Below are positions 2,320 to 29,363 of a DNA stretch of 32,000 nt, piece after piece (the first letter of the stretch is position 1; each line of letters opens with the position of its first letter). Below the pieces are notes generated by a model, which searched no databases, was not told the DNA's origin, and worked only from the letters and a program-made list of their open reading frames with translations. The DNA lies in assembly GCF_001644705.1 (NCBI RefSeq), contig NZ_CP015137.1:2580001-2612000 (forward strand), written 5' to 3'. The stretch is from Dickeya solani IPO 2222. Lineage in GTDB: Bacteria > Pseudomonadota > Gammaproteobacteria > Enterobacterales > Enterobacteriaceae. A program made the translations under genes and the position numbers.

Positions 2320-2423
2320 TTATCAGGTTCTTTTTGCCTTGCGCGCTATATGTTGAAGGATATACTTGGACTGGCTTTTTTACATGGGCTTTATGACTAT
2401 CTCAGCGAACAAGGAGTGTTTTT

Positions 2424-2903
2424 ATGTCACATCTAATTTATTTGACGCTAGAGGGGAACCAGCAGGGATTAATTTCCTCTGGTTGTTCAACATTTGACTC
2501 TATTGGAAATCGTTATCAAAGCGGACATGAGGATCAGATTCAGGTATTAGGGTTAAGTCATTCTATAACCAGAGAAGAGAATATAGCTCACCATCCTATA
2601 CAATTAATTAAGCCAATAGATAAATCATCGCCGTTGCTTGGCATGTCTATAACATCGAATGAGCGACTTACAGCTAAATTCTTTTTTTACAGAACAAATC
2701 TTGCTGGGCAATTAGAGGTTTTTTATGAGTTGAAATTAGTAGATGCAAGAATCGTAGATGTATCATCTTCTTATCCTCATGCTATTAATAACAATGAAAC
2801 CTTACCGTATGAAGTGATTAGGTTAAAGTATAAATCAATAGAGTGGTCCCATAAAACGGCGGGAACGTCTGGATATAGTATATGGAATGAGAGTGATGAA
2901 TGA
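2424..2903 (+). CDS. hcp: Hcp (TssD) family type VI secretion tube/chaperone protein; orphan copy with no other T6SS core genes in the window
   Basis: The 159-aa length and the N-terminus IYLTLEGNQQGLISSGCSxxDSIGNRYQSGHEDQI, then KPIDKSSPLL and a C-terminal AGTSGYSIW, match enterobacterial Hcp proteins as I recall them. AAGGAG lies upstream of the ATG. The gene sits in an AT-rich islet. Confidence 0.85.
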   Translation: MSHLIYLTLEGNQQGLISSGCSTFDSIGNRYQSGHEDQIQVLGLSHSITREENIAHHPIQLIKPIDKSSPLLGMSITSNERLTAKFFFYRTNLAGQLEVFYELKLVDARIVDVSSSYPHAINNNETLPYEVIRLKYKSIEWSHKTAGTSGYSIWNESDE

Positions 2904-2993
2904 TTTTGTGACGGATTTTTTATATATTGTATAAGGCTATTCAGCGTGTGATTAAAAATAAAAGGATTTAATTAGGGGTAAAGGGAGGTAAGG

Positions 2994-3593
2994 ATGGATA
3001 TCAAAGAAGGCCTTTTTACCTTTAATGCTGAAGGTGATGATATACCTAATAGTCTCTATTTTTCAAGAAAGATCCATTGGCCTGGGAACCCGGCTATTTG
3101 TAAAGATATCGCATCTGGCGTAACGATAGGAAGAGGATTCGACCTTGGTCAAAGAACTCAGTCTGAATCATATTATCATCTGATGAGTGCAGGTATTCCA
3201 CAAGAGAAGGCAATGATGATCTCGGAAGGTTCAGGGATGCATGGATGTGAAGCATCAGATTTTGTTACTCGGAATAGGGATAAAATTGGTGAAATAACTC
3301 ATTTTCAGCAAGCTAATTTATTTAAGATATCATTTCCTTCATATATTACAAGGGCCAGAGGGTTTTATAACAGATATAAAAACTCTAATACTGTGTCTTG
3401 GGATAATATGGATGAAAGGATGAGGGATATATTTATTGATATGATATATCAGGGATCGATGAGAATTAGATATGTTTCTTTTTTTGAAGAGAACAACCCT
3501 GATGCTGTTATCTCGCTGATAAAAAACACATCCAGTTTGGCTGCTTATGACAAAAGTAGAAAAAGAGTGATTTACTTAAAGGGGGAGAAATGA
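2994..3593 (+). CDS. Candidate Hcp-associated T6SS effector with a lysozyme-fold, pesticin C-terminus-like muramidase domain
   Basis: The gene lies directly downstream of hcp with a GGGAGG RBS. An N-terminal acidic residue in FNAEG is followed about 30 aa later by SGVTIGRGFDLGQR. This is the E...(S)GVTIGxGxDLG pattern I associate with pesticin-type/T4-lysozyme-like muramidases. Later FKISFPSYITRARGFY and IDMIYQG segments resemble that family. There is no signal peptide, consistent with T6SS delivery. The coding call is solid; the functional call is moderate. Confidence 0.55.
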   Translation: MDIKEGLFTFNAEGDDIPNSLYFSRKIHWPGNPAICKDIASGVTIGRGFDLGQRTQSESYYHLMSAGIPQEKAMMISEGSGMHGCEASDFVTRNRDKIGEITHFQQANLFKISFPSYITRARGFYNRYKNSNTVSWDNMDERMRDIFIDMIYQGSMRIRYVSFFEENNPDAVISLIKNTSSLAAYDKSRKRVIYLKGEK

Positions 3594-3970
3594 GGATTCT
3601 ATTTTTTGTTCTTTTGCTTTTTTCATTTGAATCCTACGCAAATGACATTCAGTCTTGTTATGAAAAAAAGGTAACGGCATATATTCAGAGTTGTATGGAG
3701 GTATTAGCTCAAGATGAGAATAAGAAATACAATGACGAATATGATAAATTTATCAAGAGTATTCGCAGTGAAGACTTAGCTAATTATAGTGATTTTATTG
3801 AATCAATTGCTAATTCTAAATTATTTTGGGATAAATATATTGCCAGTGAGTGCAGAGCTGAAGGTTTGTTAAATATAAAAGACTCTCCTGCCTACCATAT
3901 TGCATATAGTGAGTGTTTGGTTAAAGCTTACAGAATCAGGGTGATGTTTTATAAAAAATATCCATTTTGA
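3590..3970 (+). CDS. Candidate cognate immunity protein; periplasmic DUF1311 (LprI lysozyme-inhibitor-like) four-cysteine protein
   Basis: The ATG overlaps the effector stop (ATGA at 3590-3593). The Sec signal MRILFFVLLLFSFESYA|ND is followed by four Cys (CYEK...SCMEV...SECRAEG...SECLVKAY) and a FWDKYIASEC segment, fitting the DUF1311 pattern as I recall it. Confidence 0.55.
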   Translation: MRILFFVLLLFSFESYANDIQSCYEKKVTAYIQSCMEVLAQDENKKYNDEYDKFIKSIRSEDLANYSDFIESIANSKLFWDKYIASECRAEGLLNIKDSPAYHIAYSECLVKAYRIRVMFYKKYPF

Positions 3971-4096
3971 TTTTTTGGGTAAGAGAATAAATGAAGACTC
4001 TTCTGGTGTTGTGGGATGTTATATACCCAGAATCATTCGAGTTGTGTTTGCCCTTTAGGGCAAGGCTCATTACGAGCCTTGTAATGCAGCGATGCC

Positions 4097-4831
4097 TTAC
4101 CCCTGCGCCGGAAACGGAGGCAGTTGTCGAAAAGTATGCAATAGTCCTTCCGACCAGGCTTTGCGAATGGCGACGAAGTAAGGGTCGTTTTCGGTGATGC
4201 GGCGCTGTTCGCTGGCATCAAAGCTGCCGTTGCGATAAATCATCACGTCCAGCGGCAGGCCGACCGAGAGATTGCTGCGCAGCGTGGAGTCGATGGAAAT
4301 CAGCGCGCAGCACATCGCCTGTTCCAGCGAGGTGTCCGCCGTCAGTACCCGGTCGATAATCGGTTTGCCGTACTTACTTTCGCCGATCTGAAAGTAGGGG
4401 GTGTCGACGGTGGCTTCGATAAAGTTGCCTTCCGGGTAGATGTGAAACAGCCGCGGCGTTTCGTCGCCAATTTGCCCGCCCAGCAGCAGGTTGCAGCCGA
4501 AATTGGTGCTGCTGCCGTTTTGCTGCGCCTGGCTGTCACGGTGGATTATCTCTCGCACCGTTTCTCCCACCAGCGTGGCGGCGTCGTACAGCGTGCTGAC
4601 CTGCATCAGGTTCGGCGTGTGCTGGGCCTGTATGCGGGCGTTCAGCAGGCTGATGATGCTCTGGGTGGTGGCGAGATTGCCGGCGGACTGGAGCACCAGC
4701 ACCCGTTCGCCTTCCTGACGGAACACATAGAGCTTTCTGAAGGTTGCGATGTGGTCGACCCCCGCGTTGGTGCGGGAGTCGGAAGCAAAGACCAGCCCGT
4801 CAGACAGACGCATGGCCACACAGTAGGTCAT
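4097..4831 (-). CDS. Anbu-type proteasome beta-subunit-like peptidase (Ntn hydrolase)
   Basis: The N-terminus MTYCVAMRLSDGLVFASDSRTNAG places Thr2 as the expected N-terminal nucleophile. The length of about 244 aa fits. It is the last gene of the conserved cpATP-grasp/alpha-E/transglutaminase/peptidase operon. Confidence 0.85.
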   Translation of the reverse strand: MTYCVAMRLSDGLVFASDSRTNAGVDHIATFRKLYVFRQEGERVLVLQSAGNLATTQSIISLLNARIQAQHTPNLMQVSTLYDAATLVGETVREIIHRDSQAQQNGSSTNFGCNLLLGGQIGDETPRLFHIYPEGNFIEATVDTPYFQIGESKYGKPIIDRVLTADTSLEQAMCCALISIDSTLRSNLSVGLPLDVMIYRNGSFDASEQRRITENDPYFVAIRKAWSEGLLHTFRQLPPFPAQG

Positions 4832-4860
4832 ACAACACCTTTTGAGTTAAACAGTGCTCA

Positions 4861-5682
4861 CTATTGCTGCTGTTGCGCCTGCTGCTGTCGCTCAAACAGG
4901 CTCACCTCAGCCTCGGAAAACATCTCTTCATCGCCGCCGCCGAGGCGGCTGCCGCGCACCGGGCAGGCATCCAGATAGTCCATCCCCACCGCCAGCCGTA
5001 AGTGCTGATTGAGCTGGCGGGTGTTGTTGGTGATGTCAAAACTGTACCAGCGTTCGTTCAGCCAGGCTTCGGCCCAGGCGTGCATCGCCACGTGCTCGGT
5101 ATCCCGGCTGTAAACGTAGCCGCTGACGTAGCGCGCCGGAATGCGCAGGCTGCGGCAGCAGGCCAAAAATACATGGGTATGATCCTGACACACCCCTTTG
5201 CCTTTGGCAAAAGCCGCCGATGCGGTGTCGTGCACCCGGGTGGCGCCGGGAGTATACGGCATTTTCAACCGCAATTCCGCCATCAGCGCCGCCAGGCTGC
5301 CCGCCGGATCGGCCTCGTGGTAATAACGCCGGGCGAACTCGCGGATCGACTCGTCGGCCTCGGTCAGTTCGGTACTGCGCAGGAACACCAGCGGCGACAG
5401 CGACTCGTCGCTCTCCTCGGGCAGCTCTTCTACATTATCGGCGATTTCCACCACACCCTGAGCGTGGATCAGAATGTCGTGATGAGGATGGTCCAGCGTC
5501 AGCACGTGCATCAGGTTGCCGTAGGCGTCGGTGGTGGCGACCGCCGAGGCCGGCAGAGTCAGCTTCCAGTCGCGGATGCGCTGGCGAGCGGAACTCTGCG
5601 GCGTAAGCCGCAGGTACTGGGTGCTGAACTTCACTTCTTCATCGTAACGATAGTGGGTCAGGTGATTGATGGTGAGTTTCAT
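4861..5682 (-). CDS. Transglutaminase-family protein (Bact_transglu_N plus transglutaminase-like cysteine protease core)
   Basis: The N-terminus MKLTINHLTHYRYDEEV is typical of the Bact_transglu_N domain. The catalytic-Cys context is GKGVCQDHTHVF, with downstream H and D residues. The start overlaps the alpha-E stop (ATGA). Confidence 0.9.
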   Translation of the reverse strand: MKLTINHLTHYRYDEEVKFSTQYLRLTPQSSARQRIRDWKLTLPASAVATTDAYGNLMHVLTLDHPHHDILIHAQGVVEIADNVEELPEESDESLSPLVFLRSTELTEADESIREFARRYYHEADPAGSLAALMAELRLKMPYTPGATRVHDTASAAFAKGKGVCQDHTHVFLACCRSLRIPARYVSGYVYSRDTEHVAMHAWAEAWLNERWYSFDITNNTRQLNQHLRLAVGMDYLDACPVRGSRLGGGDEEMFSEAEVSLFERQQQAQQQQ

Positions 5683-6608
5683 AGCGCCTCCAGGTAGGTG
5701 TGACGGATGCTGTCAGCCAGTTCGTTGATTTTGATGAGGAAACGGTTGAGATAGTTTTGCAGGTCGTCGGCCAGTACGTCGTCGAGCGAGCCGAAGCGCA
5801 GTTCCACGTGCAGTAAATGGGCCAGCCGCTGTGGGATGCGCGCCCGTTCGCTGCCGATCATCTCCAGTTGTTGCACCAGATCGCCCACGCAGGCGTGCAG
5901 CGAGCGCGGCACGTCGTTGCGCAGCACCAGCAGTTCGGTGACGGTTTCCCGGCTGATGGGCTGGCGATAAATGCTGTGGTAGGCCTCGCGGGCGCTCACC
6001 GCGCGCAGCAGGGTATCGAGCCGGTAGTATTCACGCACCGGGTCTGGGTCGTTGTTGAGCTGTTGATCCTTGATCGTCAGCAACTGCGCGGTAGCAAACG
6101 CCCGTTCTATCAGGGTGCCGATGCGGATAAAACACTGGGCGTCGTTGCGCAGTAACGTGCCGAACATGGCGCCGCGAAACAGGTGCGCGCGCTCTTTTAC
6201 CCAGTCGAAGAACGCATCAATACCGATCTTGTCCACCCCGGACTGGCGCAGGTTGCGGATATCAATACGGGTGGTGTTGATGCATTCCCACACTTCGGAC
6301 GACAGGCTACCGCGTACCGCGTGGGCGTTGTTCCAGGCCATTTCGATGCAACTGTAGATGCTGCTGGGGTTGTGGCTGTCCAGCGCAAAGAAGTTCAGCA
6401 GGTTGTTCATGGTGAAGCGGGCGTAGCGCTCCTGAAACAGCTCATGGGTGAACGTCAGATTGAGCGGCAGCGATAGGTCATGTTGCTGCTGACCGTGGCG
6501 CGGCATCATCGACAGTTTGTAGGTGACGTCCAGCACGCGGGCAAAACTTTCCGCCCGTTCCAGATAACGGGCCATCCAGTACAGTTCGCTGGCGGTACGG
6601 CTTAGCAT
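5679..6608 (-). CDS. Alpha-E domain protein
   Basis: The N-terminus MLSRTASELYWMARYLERAE is the hallmark start of alpha-E domain proteins. The protein is all-helical-looking and 309 aa long. Its start overlaps the upstream gene stop by 7 nt (ATGCTAA). Confidence 0.85.
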   Translation of the reverse strand: MLSRTASELYWMARYLERAESFARVLDVTYKLSMMPRHGQQQHDLSLPLNLTFTHELFQERYARFTMNNLLNFFALDSHNPSSIYSCIEMAWNNAHAVRGSLSSEVWECINTTRIDIRNLRQSGVDKIGIDAFFDWVKERAHLFRGAMFGTLLRNDAQCFIRIGTLIERAFATAQLLTIKDQQLNNDPDPVREYYRLDTLLRAVSAREAYHSIYRQPISRETVTELLVLRNDVPRSLHACVGDLVQQLEMIGSERARIPQRLAHLLHVELRFGSLDDVLADDLQNYLNRFLIKINELADSIRHTYLEAL

Positions 6609-8041
6609 GATTCATCCTCCTCCATCACCCAGGTATCTTTGGTGCCGCCTCCTTGCGAGGAGTTCACCACCAGCGAGCCTTCGGTCAGCGCGACGCGGGT
6701 CAGCCCGCCGGGCACCAGCCGGATCTCCTCGCCGTACAGCGCGAACGGGCGCAGGTCGATATGGCGCGGCGCCAGCCCTTCCTCGACGAACGTCGGGCAG
6801 GTGGAGAGCGCCAGCGTGTCCTGAGCGATGTAATTGCCGGGGTTAGCCAGCAGCCGCTGGCGGAAATCCTCGATTTGCTGGCGGGTGGATTTGGGGCCGA
6901 CCAGCATGCCGTAGCCGCCCGCGCCGTGAACCTCTTTCACCACCATGCTGTCCAGATGGGCCAGCACGTAGCCGAGATCGTCGGGTTTGCGGCACTGCCA
7001 GGTAGGGATGTTGCCGAGAATCGGCTCCTCGGACAGGTAAAAGCGGATCATCTCCGGCACATAAGGGTAGATGGATTTGTCGTCCGCCACGCCGGTGCCG
7101 ATGGCGTTCGCCAGCACTACGCCGCCGGCGCGGTACACCGACAGCAGCCCCGGCACGCCGAGCATCGAATTAGCGCGGAACGCCAGCGGGTCGAGGAAGG
7201 CATCGTCAAGGCGGCGGTAGATCACGTCCACCCGGTACGGACCTTCGGTAGTGCGCATGTACACCGCGCCTTCCTTCACGAACAGGTCGGCGCTTTCCAC
7301 CAGTTCCACCCCCATTTGCTGGGCGAGGAAGCTGTGCTCGAAATAGGCGCTGTTGAAGCGGCCCGGCGTCATTACCACTACCGTCGGGTCGTCGACATGG
7401 GTGCTTTCCCGCAGCGTCTGCAACAGGTAGCTGGGGTAACGCTCCACCGGTGCGATGTGCTGGCTGGCGAACAGGTCCGGATAGAGCCGCATCATCATCT
7501 TGCGGTTTTCCAACATGTAGGACACGCCGGATGGCGTGCGCAAATTGTCCTCCAGCACGTAATAGTGGCCGTCGCTGTTGCGCACCATATCGATGCCGGT
7601 GATGTGGGCGTAGATATTGTTGTGCAGGTCGACGCCCTGCATGCACGGCTGATATTGCTCGTTGGCGAGTACCTGTTCGCGCGGCACGATGCCGGCGTTG
7701 AGAATGTGTTGCTGATGGTAGATATCGTAGAGGAAGGCGTTGAGAGCTTTGACCCGCTGGCGGATGCCGAGGTCGAGCATACGCCATTCATGGGCCGGGA
7801 TGATGCGCGGCACGCTGTCAAAAGGAATCAGGCGCTCGGTGCCGCCTTCTTCGCCATACACGTTAAAGGTAATCCCCACCCGGTGGAACAGCAGTTCCGC
7901 CTGTTCTTTCTTCTGGCGGATGGCGTGCTGGTCGGTCTGTTGCAGCCATTGCCAGTAGGCGTCGTAGTGCTGGCGTTGCGAGCCTTCTGCGCTGAGCATC
8001 TCATCGTAGTAAGGCGCGGTCGGAAGCGTCATTTTTATCAT
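6602..8041 (-). CDS. Circularly permuted ATP-grasp type 2 protein (amidoligase-like)
   Basis: The size and conserved blocks (GITFNVYGEEGGTERxIPFD, HITGIDxVR, YVLEDNLRTPSGVSYMLENR, VVLANAIGTGVADDK) match the family. I chose the start at ATG 8041 (MIKMTLPTAPYYDEM), preceded by AGGGGA. The track start at 8242 adds 67 low-complexity residues that look non-coding. Confidence 0.85.
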   Translation of the reverse strand: MIKMTLPTAPYYDEMLSAEGSQRQHYDAYWQWLQQTDQHAIRQKKEQAELLFHRVGITFNVYGEEGGTERLIPFDSVPRIIPAHEWRMLDLGIRQRVKALNAFLYDIYHQQHILNAGIVPREQVLANEQYQPCMQGVDLHNNIYAHITGIDMVRNSDGHYYVLEDNLRTPSGVSYMLENRKMMMRLYPDLFASQHIAPVERYPSYLLQTLRESTHVDDPTVVVMTPGRFNSAYFEHSFLAQQMGVELVESADLFVKEGAVYMRTTEGPYRVDVIYRRLDDAFLDPLAFRANSMLGVPGLLSVYRAGGVVLANAIGTGVADDKSIYPYVPEMIRFYLSEEPILGNIPTWQCRKPDDLGYVLAHLDSMVVKEVHGAGGYGMLVGPKSTRQQIEDFRQRLLANPGNYIAQDTLALSTCPTFVEEGLAPRHIDLRPFALYGEEIRLVPGGLTRVALTEGSLVVNSSQGGGTKDTWVMEEDESC

Positions 8042-8083
8042 TGTCGTCCCCTGCATTCCGCTTGATGGAAGATACAACGAAAA

Positions 8084-8100
8084 ATGCAGAAAGCATGCCA
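8084..8100 (-). promoter_or_regulatory. Sigma54-type -24/-12 promoter candidate for the cpATP-grasp operon
   Basis: The minus strand reads TGGCATGCTTTCTGCAT. GG and GC have exactly the consensus spacing of TGGCAC-N5-TTGCA. The -12 element lies about 45 nt upstream of ATG 8041. Confidence 0.5.
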
Positions 8101-8142
8101 GCGTGGCAAATGAGCTGCTTATTGCTGACGACGGAGAAAAAC

Positions 8143-8159
8143 TGCACTTCACTGGTGCA
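8143..8159. promoter_or_regulatory. NtrC-like enhancer dyad upstream of the sigma54 promoter
   Basis: TGCACTTCACTGGTGCA is a 7-3-7 dyad. It matches the NtrC consensus TGCACCA-N3-TGGTGCA at 15 of 17 positions as I recall it. It sits roughly 75 bp upstream of the predicted start site. Confidence 0.4.
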
Positions 8160-8290
8160 AATGACGGCAAACGGTGCGCTACGGCGGGGTGATGCAGCGA
8201 AAATAACGATAGGAGATAGTGCGATAGCGGAGGAGGGCGCACCGGCGTGAAACACCCGGCGCGCTGTGCAGCGCAGCCGGGTAACTGACC

Positions 8291-24991: not shown

Positions 24992-26683
<1,692 letters not shown>

Positions 26684-29278: not shown

Positions 29279-29363
29279 GCCGAAGTGGCGAAATCGGTAG
29301 ACGCAGTTGATTCAAAATCAACCGTAGAAATACGTGCCGGTTCGAGTCCGGCCTTCGGCACCA
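29279..29363 (+). tRNA. leuX: tRNA-Leu (anticodon CAA)
   Basis: The 85-nt sequence GCCGAAGTGGCGAAATCGGTAGACGCAGTTGATTCAAAATCAACCGTAGAAATACGTGCCGGTTCGAGTCCGGCCTTCGGCACCA matches E. coli leuX as I recall it. It has a long variable arm, the anticodon loop TTCAAAA and an encoded CCA. Confidence 0.95.

Follow-up and report, generated by a model that had tools for sequence, protein, structure and literature searches.

A predicted pesticin-type muramidase effector with a DUF1311/LprI immunity gene behind an orphan hcp gene in Dickeya solani

Analyzing a 32,000-nucleotide stretch of Dickeya solani IPO 2222 (contig NZ_CP015137.1, positions 2,580,001 to 2,612,000; hereafter the window), we found a ~1.8 kb islet of three genes: an hcp gene, coding for a type VI secretion system (T6SS) tube protein, a gene for a pesticin-type protein and a gene of the DUF1311/LprI family. 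We explain this group best as an orphan module for a T6SS toxin that D. solani acquired horizontally, in which the second gene very probably encodes a T6SS-delivered muramidase of the pesticin type (hereafter the effector) and the third its immunity protein. An initial annotation of this DNA had proposed the 199-residue open reading frame (ORF) downstream of hcp as an uncharacterised T6SS muramidase effector with a pesticin-like lysozyme fold, and had named profile searches and a structure search with an AlphaFold model as checks; the ORF and the motifs that it quoted (FNAEG, SGVTIGRGFDLGQR, FKISFPSYITRARGFY and IDMIYQG) are real and exactly as quoted, and all of these checks came out positive.

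The effector matched the Pfam family Pesticin (PF16754) over residues 26-158 with 30.5 bits (E 4e-7; gathering cut-off 25.8). Pesticin was the sole match of a phmmer search of the PDB (E 5e-4) and was recovered there by the family profile at E 7.5e-6, while hhalign aligned the effector to the C-terminal domain of pesticin from pPCP1 with a probability of 96.9% (E 1.9e-10). An AlphaFold2 model built from 29 homologues reached a predicted local distance difference test (pLDDT) value of 92.4 and a predicted template modelling (pTM) score of 0.86. Foldseek comparison of this model with the PDB placed pesticin 4aqn_A at the top (E 2e-5, probability 1.0, template modelling (TM) score 0.67, 198 columns), with pesticin chains at ranks 1-11 (E 2e-5 to 6e-4, TM 0.58-0.67) and dozens of T4 lysozymes from rank 12 onwards; the top 50 were exclusively entries for pesticin or T4 lysozyme, with fusion constructs of lysozyme and the tail lysozyme gp5 among them. 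The alignment with pesticin covers 198 of the 199 residues, indicating that the protein is almost wholly catalytic domain. These scores put the likeness to pesticin far outside what chance would give. A search of PHROGs yielded no endolysin family, its only match being a 357-position profile of unknown function, of which positions 180-304 were matched, just as with pesticin, and the best matches among the viral structures of BFVD were pesticin-domain proteins, not endolysins. Similarity to Tge1 (Tse3) was considered and rejected: neither the PDB sequence searches (E <=10 for the single sequence, <=1 for the profile), in which pesticin was the only lysozyme-type match, nor the Foldseek top 50 gave Tse3, whose structures we take to be in the PDB. 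By profile score, modelled fold and conserved residues the effector is a member of the pesticin-domain family, and the same data support well the view that it is a lysozyme-fold protein and predicted to be catalytically competent. NCBI has the exact sequence from D. solani on 41 contigs (ANE75820.1 and others), and there the identical RefSeq protein is named 'pesticin C-terminus-like muramidase'; NCBIfam has no model for it.

The three residues expected to form the active site, E13, T44 and D50, were invariant in all 29 aligned homologues. Across a wider set of 291 distinct domains, drawn from 80 related loci and from protein searches, Glu, Thr and Asp occurred together in 271, and the remainder were mostly gapped at these columns. 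T44 and D50, which lie in SGVTIGRGFDLGQR, were aligned directly with T201 and D207 of pesticin by phmmer, hmmsearch and hhalign, and pesticin is inactivated by T201A (PDB 4arm) and by D207A (PDB 4arl). The corresponding Glu/Thr/Asp triad of TssI2 is essential (PMC9620997), and the D867A variant of VgrG3cp is inactive (PMC9927483). The catalytic core to which the initial annotation had pointed, with an invariant Glu in an xAEG motif and the Thr and Asp of GVTIGRGxDLG, is retained.

The effector start codon lies 90 bp behind the stop codon of hcp, a bona fide member of its family (190.3 bits for TIGR03344, cut-off 58.9; 83.5 bits for PF05638), in agreement with the position claimed at the outset. 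No hydrophobic stretch was seen at the effector N-terminus, where the maximal Kyte-Doolittle value was 0.05 versus 3.12 for the protein encoded downstream, and the lack of a signal peptide noted earlier holds. Scans of the + strand detected neither a sigma-70-like promoter nor a terminator-like site between hcp and the effector gene; because no such site separates the genes on this strand, hcp, effector and immunity genes appear to form a single, co-transcribed operon.

The downstream gene is translationally linked to the effector gene, its ATG overlapping the effector stop codon (ATGA). It encodes a 126-residue protein with a classical predicted signal peptide, MRILFFVLLLFSFESYA|ND, at residues 1-17 (3590-3640), and four conserved cysteines in the mature part (C23, C35, C88 and C109). 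NCBI has the same sequence (100% identity) under the name 'lysozyme inhibitor LprI family protein [Dickeya solani]'; the family profile of the protein matched PDB 3gi7 ('secreted protein DUF1311') at E 1e-20, and 37 of 50 aligned relatives matched PF07007, the best at E 8e-19. In the 80 loci, the toxin gene is followed directly by that of a homologue with a signal peptide in 67 instances, so that the pairing of effector and immunity gene is recurrent. The immunity protein of pesticin itself, Pim, was rejected as a homologue: hhalign of the family profile against Pim of pPCP1 gave a probability of 0.1, and Pim matches PF16765 while the 126-residue protein does not. Tandem copies were also observed. 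Two to three DUF1311 genes in a row are present in each of L035, L038 and L062, and in L025 ([Erwinia] mediterraneensis) the effector homologue at 5001-5609 is followed by four tandem ORFs of ~133-135 residues, unmatched by the DUF1311 hidden Markov model, which may be arrayed immunity genes, either alternative or orphan.

The composition of the islet sets it apart from its surroundings. Its content of G and C (GC) is 0.353 versus 0.646 for the ABC-transporter ATPase gene on one side and 0.595 for the proteasome-like gene of the (Anbu-like) cluster on the other, within flanking DNA of ~60-65%. Neither transposase, integrase or other mobility genes nor meaningful direct or inverted flanking repeats were found at its borders. 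The same insertion site and gene neighbourhood recur in D. solani GCA_026891515.1 and in D. oryzae.

Features of the islet (positions in the window; GC3, GC at third codon positions; pI, isoelectric point)
Feature	Position	Strand	Description	Basis
Low-GC islet	2320..4096	.	35% GC, GC3 of the genes ~28-31%	composition profile
hcp (tssD) paralogue	2424..2903	+	159 aa, 18 kDa; T6SS tube protein, presumed effector carrier	TIGR03344, PF05638
Shine-Dalgarno AAGGGAGG of effector gene	2981..2988	+	strong, 5 nt before ATG	read off sequence
Effector gene	2994..3593	+	199 aa, 22.8 kDa, pI 8.5; predicted muramidase of pesticin-C-terminal type/T4-lysozyme fold	profile, fold, conservation
Glu13 codon (FNAEG)	3030..3032	+	predicted general-acid catalyst; equivalent of pesticin E178, TssI2 E844	conservation, motif
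Thr44-Asp50 codons (TIGRGFD)	3123..3143	+	equivalents of pesticin T201, D207	phmmer, hmmsearch, hhalign alignments
Predicted immunity gene	3590..3970	+	126-aa DUF1311/LprI-family periplasmic protein	signal peptide, PF07007, linkage

Beyond the islet, the adjoining - strand (4097-8242) carries four genes, for a proteasome-type peptidase (PF00227), a transglutaminase-like ORF, an alpha-E protein (PF04168) and a circularly permuted ATP-grasp protein (PF04174), which we take from their layout to be the 'Anbu' bacterial proteasome-homologue operon. Elsewhere in the window, Rfam matched the antisense-type Yersinia small RNA Ysr276 at 25751-25942 (+; 181.9 bits), opposite a long - strand ORF (24992-26659), and a tRNA-Leu(CAA) gene lies at 29279-29363 (+).

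To characterize the distribution of the toxin domain, a profile of the effector family was searched against 1.84 billion representative proteins and the gene context of the 80 related loci was compared, the upstream neighbours being clustered and then scanned against Pfam. The search returned 1,312 clusters, 911 of them at E<=1e-10, with the domain mostly at the C-terminus of larger proteins. The free ~200-residue effector following an orphan hcp was found in Dickeya and Pectobacterium (L001, L002, L028, L029 and L033). A ~295-residue version joining PG_binding_1 to Pesticin is encoded immediately behind hcp in the main clusters (tssB-tssC-hcp) of Ewingella, Erwinia, Pantoea and P. zantedeschiae, as in L035 and six loci like it; altogether, hcp lies directly upstream of the effector homologue in ~13 of the 80 loci. 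The domain also forms the C-terminal extension of an evolved VgrG in Vibrio hepatarius (L049), is part of 770-900-residue proteins encoded after vgrG in Pseudomonas and Aeromonas (L034, L037 and L050), is fused to Peptidase_M23 in a ~900-residue protein of another Pseudomonas locus (L030), and is joined to RHS in Lysobacter (L070) and to Pyocin_S in Shewanella (L046). Orphan effector/immunity pairs occupy varied sites in Erwinia, Rosenbergiella and Rouxiella. This is how polymorphic toxin domains are distributed. In Dickeya fangzhongdai ND14b, toxin and immunity gene are paired in the same way but with a larger architecture; there, genes 4575/4576, encoding a 737-residue DUF4764+Pesticin protein beside a 149-residue DUF1311 protein, are listed in a table of species-specific genes (PMC6329079).

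The Hcp of the islet shares 83% identity with the Hcp encoded upstream of a ~45%-identical effector in Pectobacterium, and no BLAST similarity was found between it and the Hcp of the main cluster in Ewingella. Hcps of the same subfamily, 68-84% identical to that of D. solani, stand at the start of further orphan islets whose small cargo differs. In L085 (Pectobacterium brasiliense, 3501-4758), an hcp of this subfamily is followed by a gene for a Tlde1-domain protein and an 87-residue gene. In L082 (D. dadantii 3937, CP002038.1 4306371-4313850; 3501-5266), an orphan hcp paralogue, 84% identical, lies inside the nif gene cluster with two neighbours in convergent orientation, a 267-residue PG_binding_1+Phage_lysozyme gene and a 134-residue gene, apparently another islet in which a lysozyme-type effector-immunity pair is linked to hcp, from a different fold family. 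In L089 (a metagenome contig with a Yersinia pseudotuberculosis-type Hcp, 3501-5319), the hcp is followed by genes for an unannotated 290-residue protein and a DUF1240 protein, a candidate uncharacterised effector-immunity pair. Both L085 and L082 (Hcp identity 74-84%) share the architecture of the D. solani islet, in which one hcp is joined by a gene for a small protein directed at peptidoglycan and by a short partner gene, all set among housekeeping genes, whereas their toxin folds (an L,D-transpeptidase-like Tlde1 and a GH24 Phage_lysozyme), their partner genes and, in D. dadantii 3937, the convergent orientation of the pair differ. Hcp homologues of Xenorhabdus and Photorhabdus (P0298, P0300, P0308, P0311, P0315 and others) are 243-247 residues long, are ~61-63% identical to the islet Hcp over the Hcp domain and carry ~85-residue C-terminal extensions; these may be Hcp-toxin fusions.

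With the C-terminal activity domain of pesticin (Pst) of Yersinia pestis pPCP1 (PF16754; PDB 4aqn) the effector shares the predicted T4-lysozyme-like fold, the motifs x-E-G, H-[FW]-P, GVT[IF]G.G.DLGQR and YQ, the same Glu/Thr/Asp and, by prediction, the target, pesticin acting on periplasmic peptidoglycan. However, the two proteins are only ~19% identical, and the Dickeya protein lacks the N-terminal FyuA-binding and translocation domains of pesticin (residues 1-166), carries 8 inserted residues between its Glu and the HWP motif, is paired with a DUF1311/LprI protein rather than the unrelated Pim (PF16765), and is linked to hcp whereas pesticin is a plasmid bacteriocin. Evolved-VgrG effectors with the pesticin domain are TssI2/TsiI2 of Vibrio fluvialis, with muramidase activity and periplasmic toxicity (PMC9620997), and the T6SS-dependent VgrG3cp/TsiV3cp of V. 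cholerae E1 (PMC9927483), both of which have been demonstrated to be muramidase effector-immunity pairs acting in T6SS-dependent killing. They have the same toxin domain family and essential triad and a periplasmic immunity gene downstream, which in the related Vibrio loci L048 and L049 is of the same DUF1311-like family as in Dickeya. Their toxin domain is fused to a VgrG spike through a PG_binding_1 module, while the Dickeya effector is a free protein beside hcp, and the spacing from Glu to Thr is 19 in TssI2 versus 31 in the Dickeya effector.

Within the Enterobacterales, Pse15 (pesticin domain) and Psi15 (LprI domain) of Pantoea agglomerans mediate T6SS1-dependent killing (bioRxiv 10.64898/2026.08.01.741415), and Pantoea 'hcp-island' proteins with PG_binding and pesticin domains have been described as Pme (bioRxiv 10.1101/2023.03.17.533219) and in P. 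ananatis (PMC3942780). In these cases, too, a pesticin-domain effector precedes an LprI/DUF1311 immunity gene, in hotspots or hcp islands; the hcp-island versions differ in carrying an N-terminal PG_binding_1 (~295 residues) and in standing behind a main-cluster Hcp of the kind without BLAST similarity to that of the islet. Pse15 (WP_062758233.1) was not found among the cluster members of the effector family and is likened to the Dickeya protein by domain description. By gene context, then, the effector is a member of an established class, the pesticin-like T6SS muramidase effectors with DUF1311/LprI immunity. The word 'uncharacterised' in the initial annotation holds for this Dickeya protein and not for its family, which has been validated elsewhere (the Vibrio and Pantoea studies above) and whose Dickeya member NCBI has already named.

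Together, the data suggest the following course of events. The effector would be made in the cytoplasm, loaded, most likely, inside the hexameric rings of the Hcp encoded upstream, fired by a T6SS encoded elsewhere in D. solani and freed in the periplasm of a Gram-negative neighbour. In this compartment it would act as an N-acetylmuramidase of the pesticin/T4-lysozyme type and hydrolyse the beta-1,4 bond between N-acetylmuramic acid (MurNAc) and N-acetylglucosamine (GlcNAc) of peptidoglycan, with Glu13 as the presumed general acid and Asp50/Thr44 positioning the water, so that the target cell would lyse. The producer and its kin would be guarded by the translationally coupled downstream gene, whose Sec-exported, disulfide-bonded DUF1311/LprI-family product is predicted to inhibit the enzyme by binding it in the periplasm. 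Of this account, the analysis shows the homology, the fold, the conserved catalytic residues, the linkage of the genes and the recurrence of the effector-immunity pair; enzymatic activity, dependence on a T6SS, the route through the Hcp lumen and the mode of inhibition are inferred.

Several observations weigh against this account. The sequence alignments of phmmer, hmmsearch and hhalign begin at residue ~23-28 and leave E13 unaligned to pesticin E178 because an 8-residue insertion follows E13; its equivalence to E178 rests on its invariance, on the x-E-G motif, which pesticin carries in GFEGF, and on the structural alignment of the model, and is in this sense a prediction from sequence and fold. 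The 126-residue protein scored 21.6 bits with PF07007, 0.4 below the cut-off of 22. No T6SS core genes lie within the window, and because of this we assume dependence on a distant T6SS cluster; T6SS genes are conserved in D. solani (PMC4028081). The literature yielded no experimental data on the effector or on any Dickeya or Pectobacterium orthologue. Two further points concern delivery. With 22.8 kDa, the effector is about as large as small cargo of the Hcp lumen gets. Most of the standalone ~200-residue homologues (those of Erwinia, Rosenbergiella and Rouxiella) have no adjacent hcp; adjacency to hcp is therefore not a family-wide requirement, the export route may differ between members, and it is for the same reason that we infer the Hcp-lumen route rather than state it.

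Delivery through the Hcp lumen, as read from gene order, is a claim that we put only a little above an even chance. It is suggested because the design of hcp, small toxin and partner recurs and because the protein has nothing beyond its catalytic domain. The same toxin and immunity protein might instead travel on a VgrG/PAAR spike or with any Hcp, the adjacent hcp being an extra tube-subunit gene that moves with cassettes. The many standalone homologues without a neighbouring hcp fit such a scheme, as do the spike-borne Pesticin domains of Vibrio (L049; PMC9620997) and the delivery of plasmid-expressed Pse15/Psi15 by the T6SS1 of a surrogate Pantoea strain (bioRxiv 10.64898/2026.08.01.741415). 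However, Pfam gave the Pesticin domain only, with no MIX, FIX, PAAR, DUF4123 or DUF1795 adaptor marker; the near full-length match to pesticin leaves no obvious spike-binding module; and the order of hcp followed by a small effector is recurrent in the subfamily of the islet Hcp, so that we regard spike or general Hcp carriage as possible but unlikely.

Whichever carrier is used, the effector could also be a lytic transglycosylase, cutting the same bond with 1,6-anhydroMurNAc as the product. Lysozyme-fold enzymes include lytic transglycosylases, and the phiKZ gp144 transglycosylase served as the template on which a protein of a Pantoea hcp island was modelled (PMC3942780), but the effector has the full, invariant Glu/Asp/Thr set typical of hydrolytic T4-type lysozymes, and the characterized proteins nearest to it, pesticin and TssI2, belong to the muramidases (PMC9620997, citing Vollmer 1997 and Patzer 2012), which makes a transglycosylase very unlikely. 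Least probable of all, to the point of being hardly credible, is the idea that the effector, as what remains of a phage endolysin or as a bacteriocin module independent of the T6SS, is set free by lysis instead of being injected: the fold is common to phage lysozymes, pesticin is itself a TonB-dependent bacteriocin and a Pyocin_S fusion of the domain exists (L046), but phage, holin and lysis genes are absent from the islet, the 199 residues comprise the catalytic domain with no receptor-binding or translocation domain, PHROGs and BFVD point away from endolysins, and the effector gene stands between hcp and the gene of a periplasmic immunity protein.

Returning to the T6SS-delivered muramidase, covariation of two cysteines hints at a further feature. 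Cys36 (codon 3099-3101) and Cys85 (3246-3248) were both present in 87 of the 291 homologous domains, both absent in 193 and found singly in only 11; Cys36 lies within a subclade-specific insertion, in a lower-confidence loop of the model (residues 31-40, pLDDT 67). The pattern would fit a disulfide formed only in the oxidising periplasm of the victim. Joined with the linkage data, it leads to a speculative picture, to which we give rather little credence as a whole, in which the orphan Hcp is a dedicated, exchangeable carrier of small peptidoglycan-degrading cargo and the Dickeya cargo is loaded in the reduced state and locked or activated by the Cys36-Cys85 disulfide in the victim periplasm. 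For its first part, there may be a mobile family of cassettes of hcp, cargo and antidote across Dickeya, Pectobacterium, Yersinia and Photorhabdus; for its second, there may be target-assisted (DsbA-dependent) activation of a pesticin-type lysozyme in one subclade.

We found no paper describing an hcp-pesticin islet of Dickeya or Pectobacterium. Because the literature likewise offered no experiments on a standalone pesticin-type effector linked to Hcp, the validated ones found being VgrG fusions and Pse15, the Dickeya effector is a convenient minimal model for the loading of a lysozyme-fold enzyme into Hcp, for the inhibition of lysozyme-type enzymes by DUF1311/LprI proteins and for the tuning of activity by a disulfide that may form in the periplasm. 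Current understanding is not overturned by the islet, which is an incremental and well-predicted case. The T6SS arsenal of D. solani known so far consists mostly of Rhs toxins (PMC4028081), and to this arsenal of an aggressive potato pathogen the islet adds a predicted cell-wall-lytic effector-immunity pair that probably helps the bacterium to compete in the rhizosphere and within rotting tissue.

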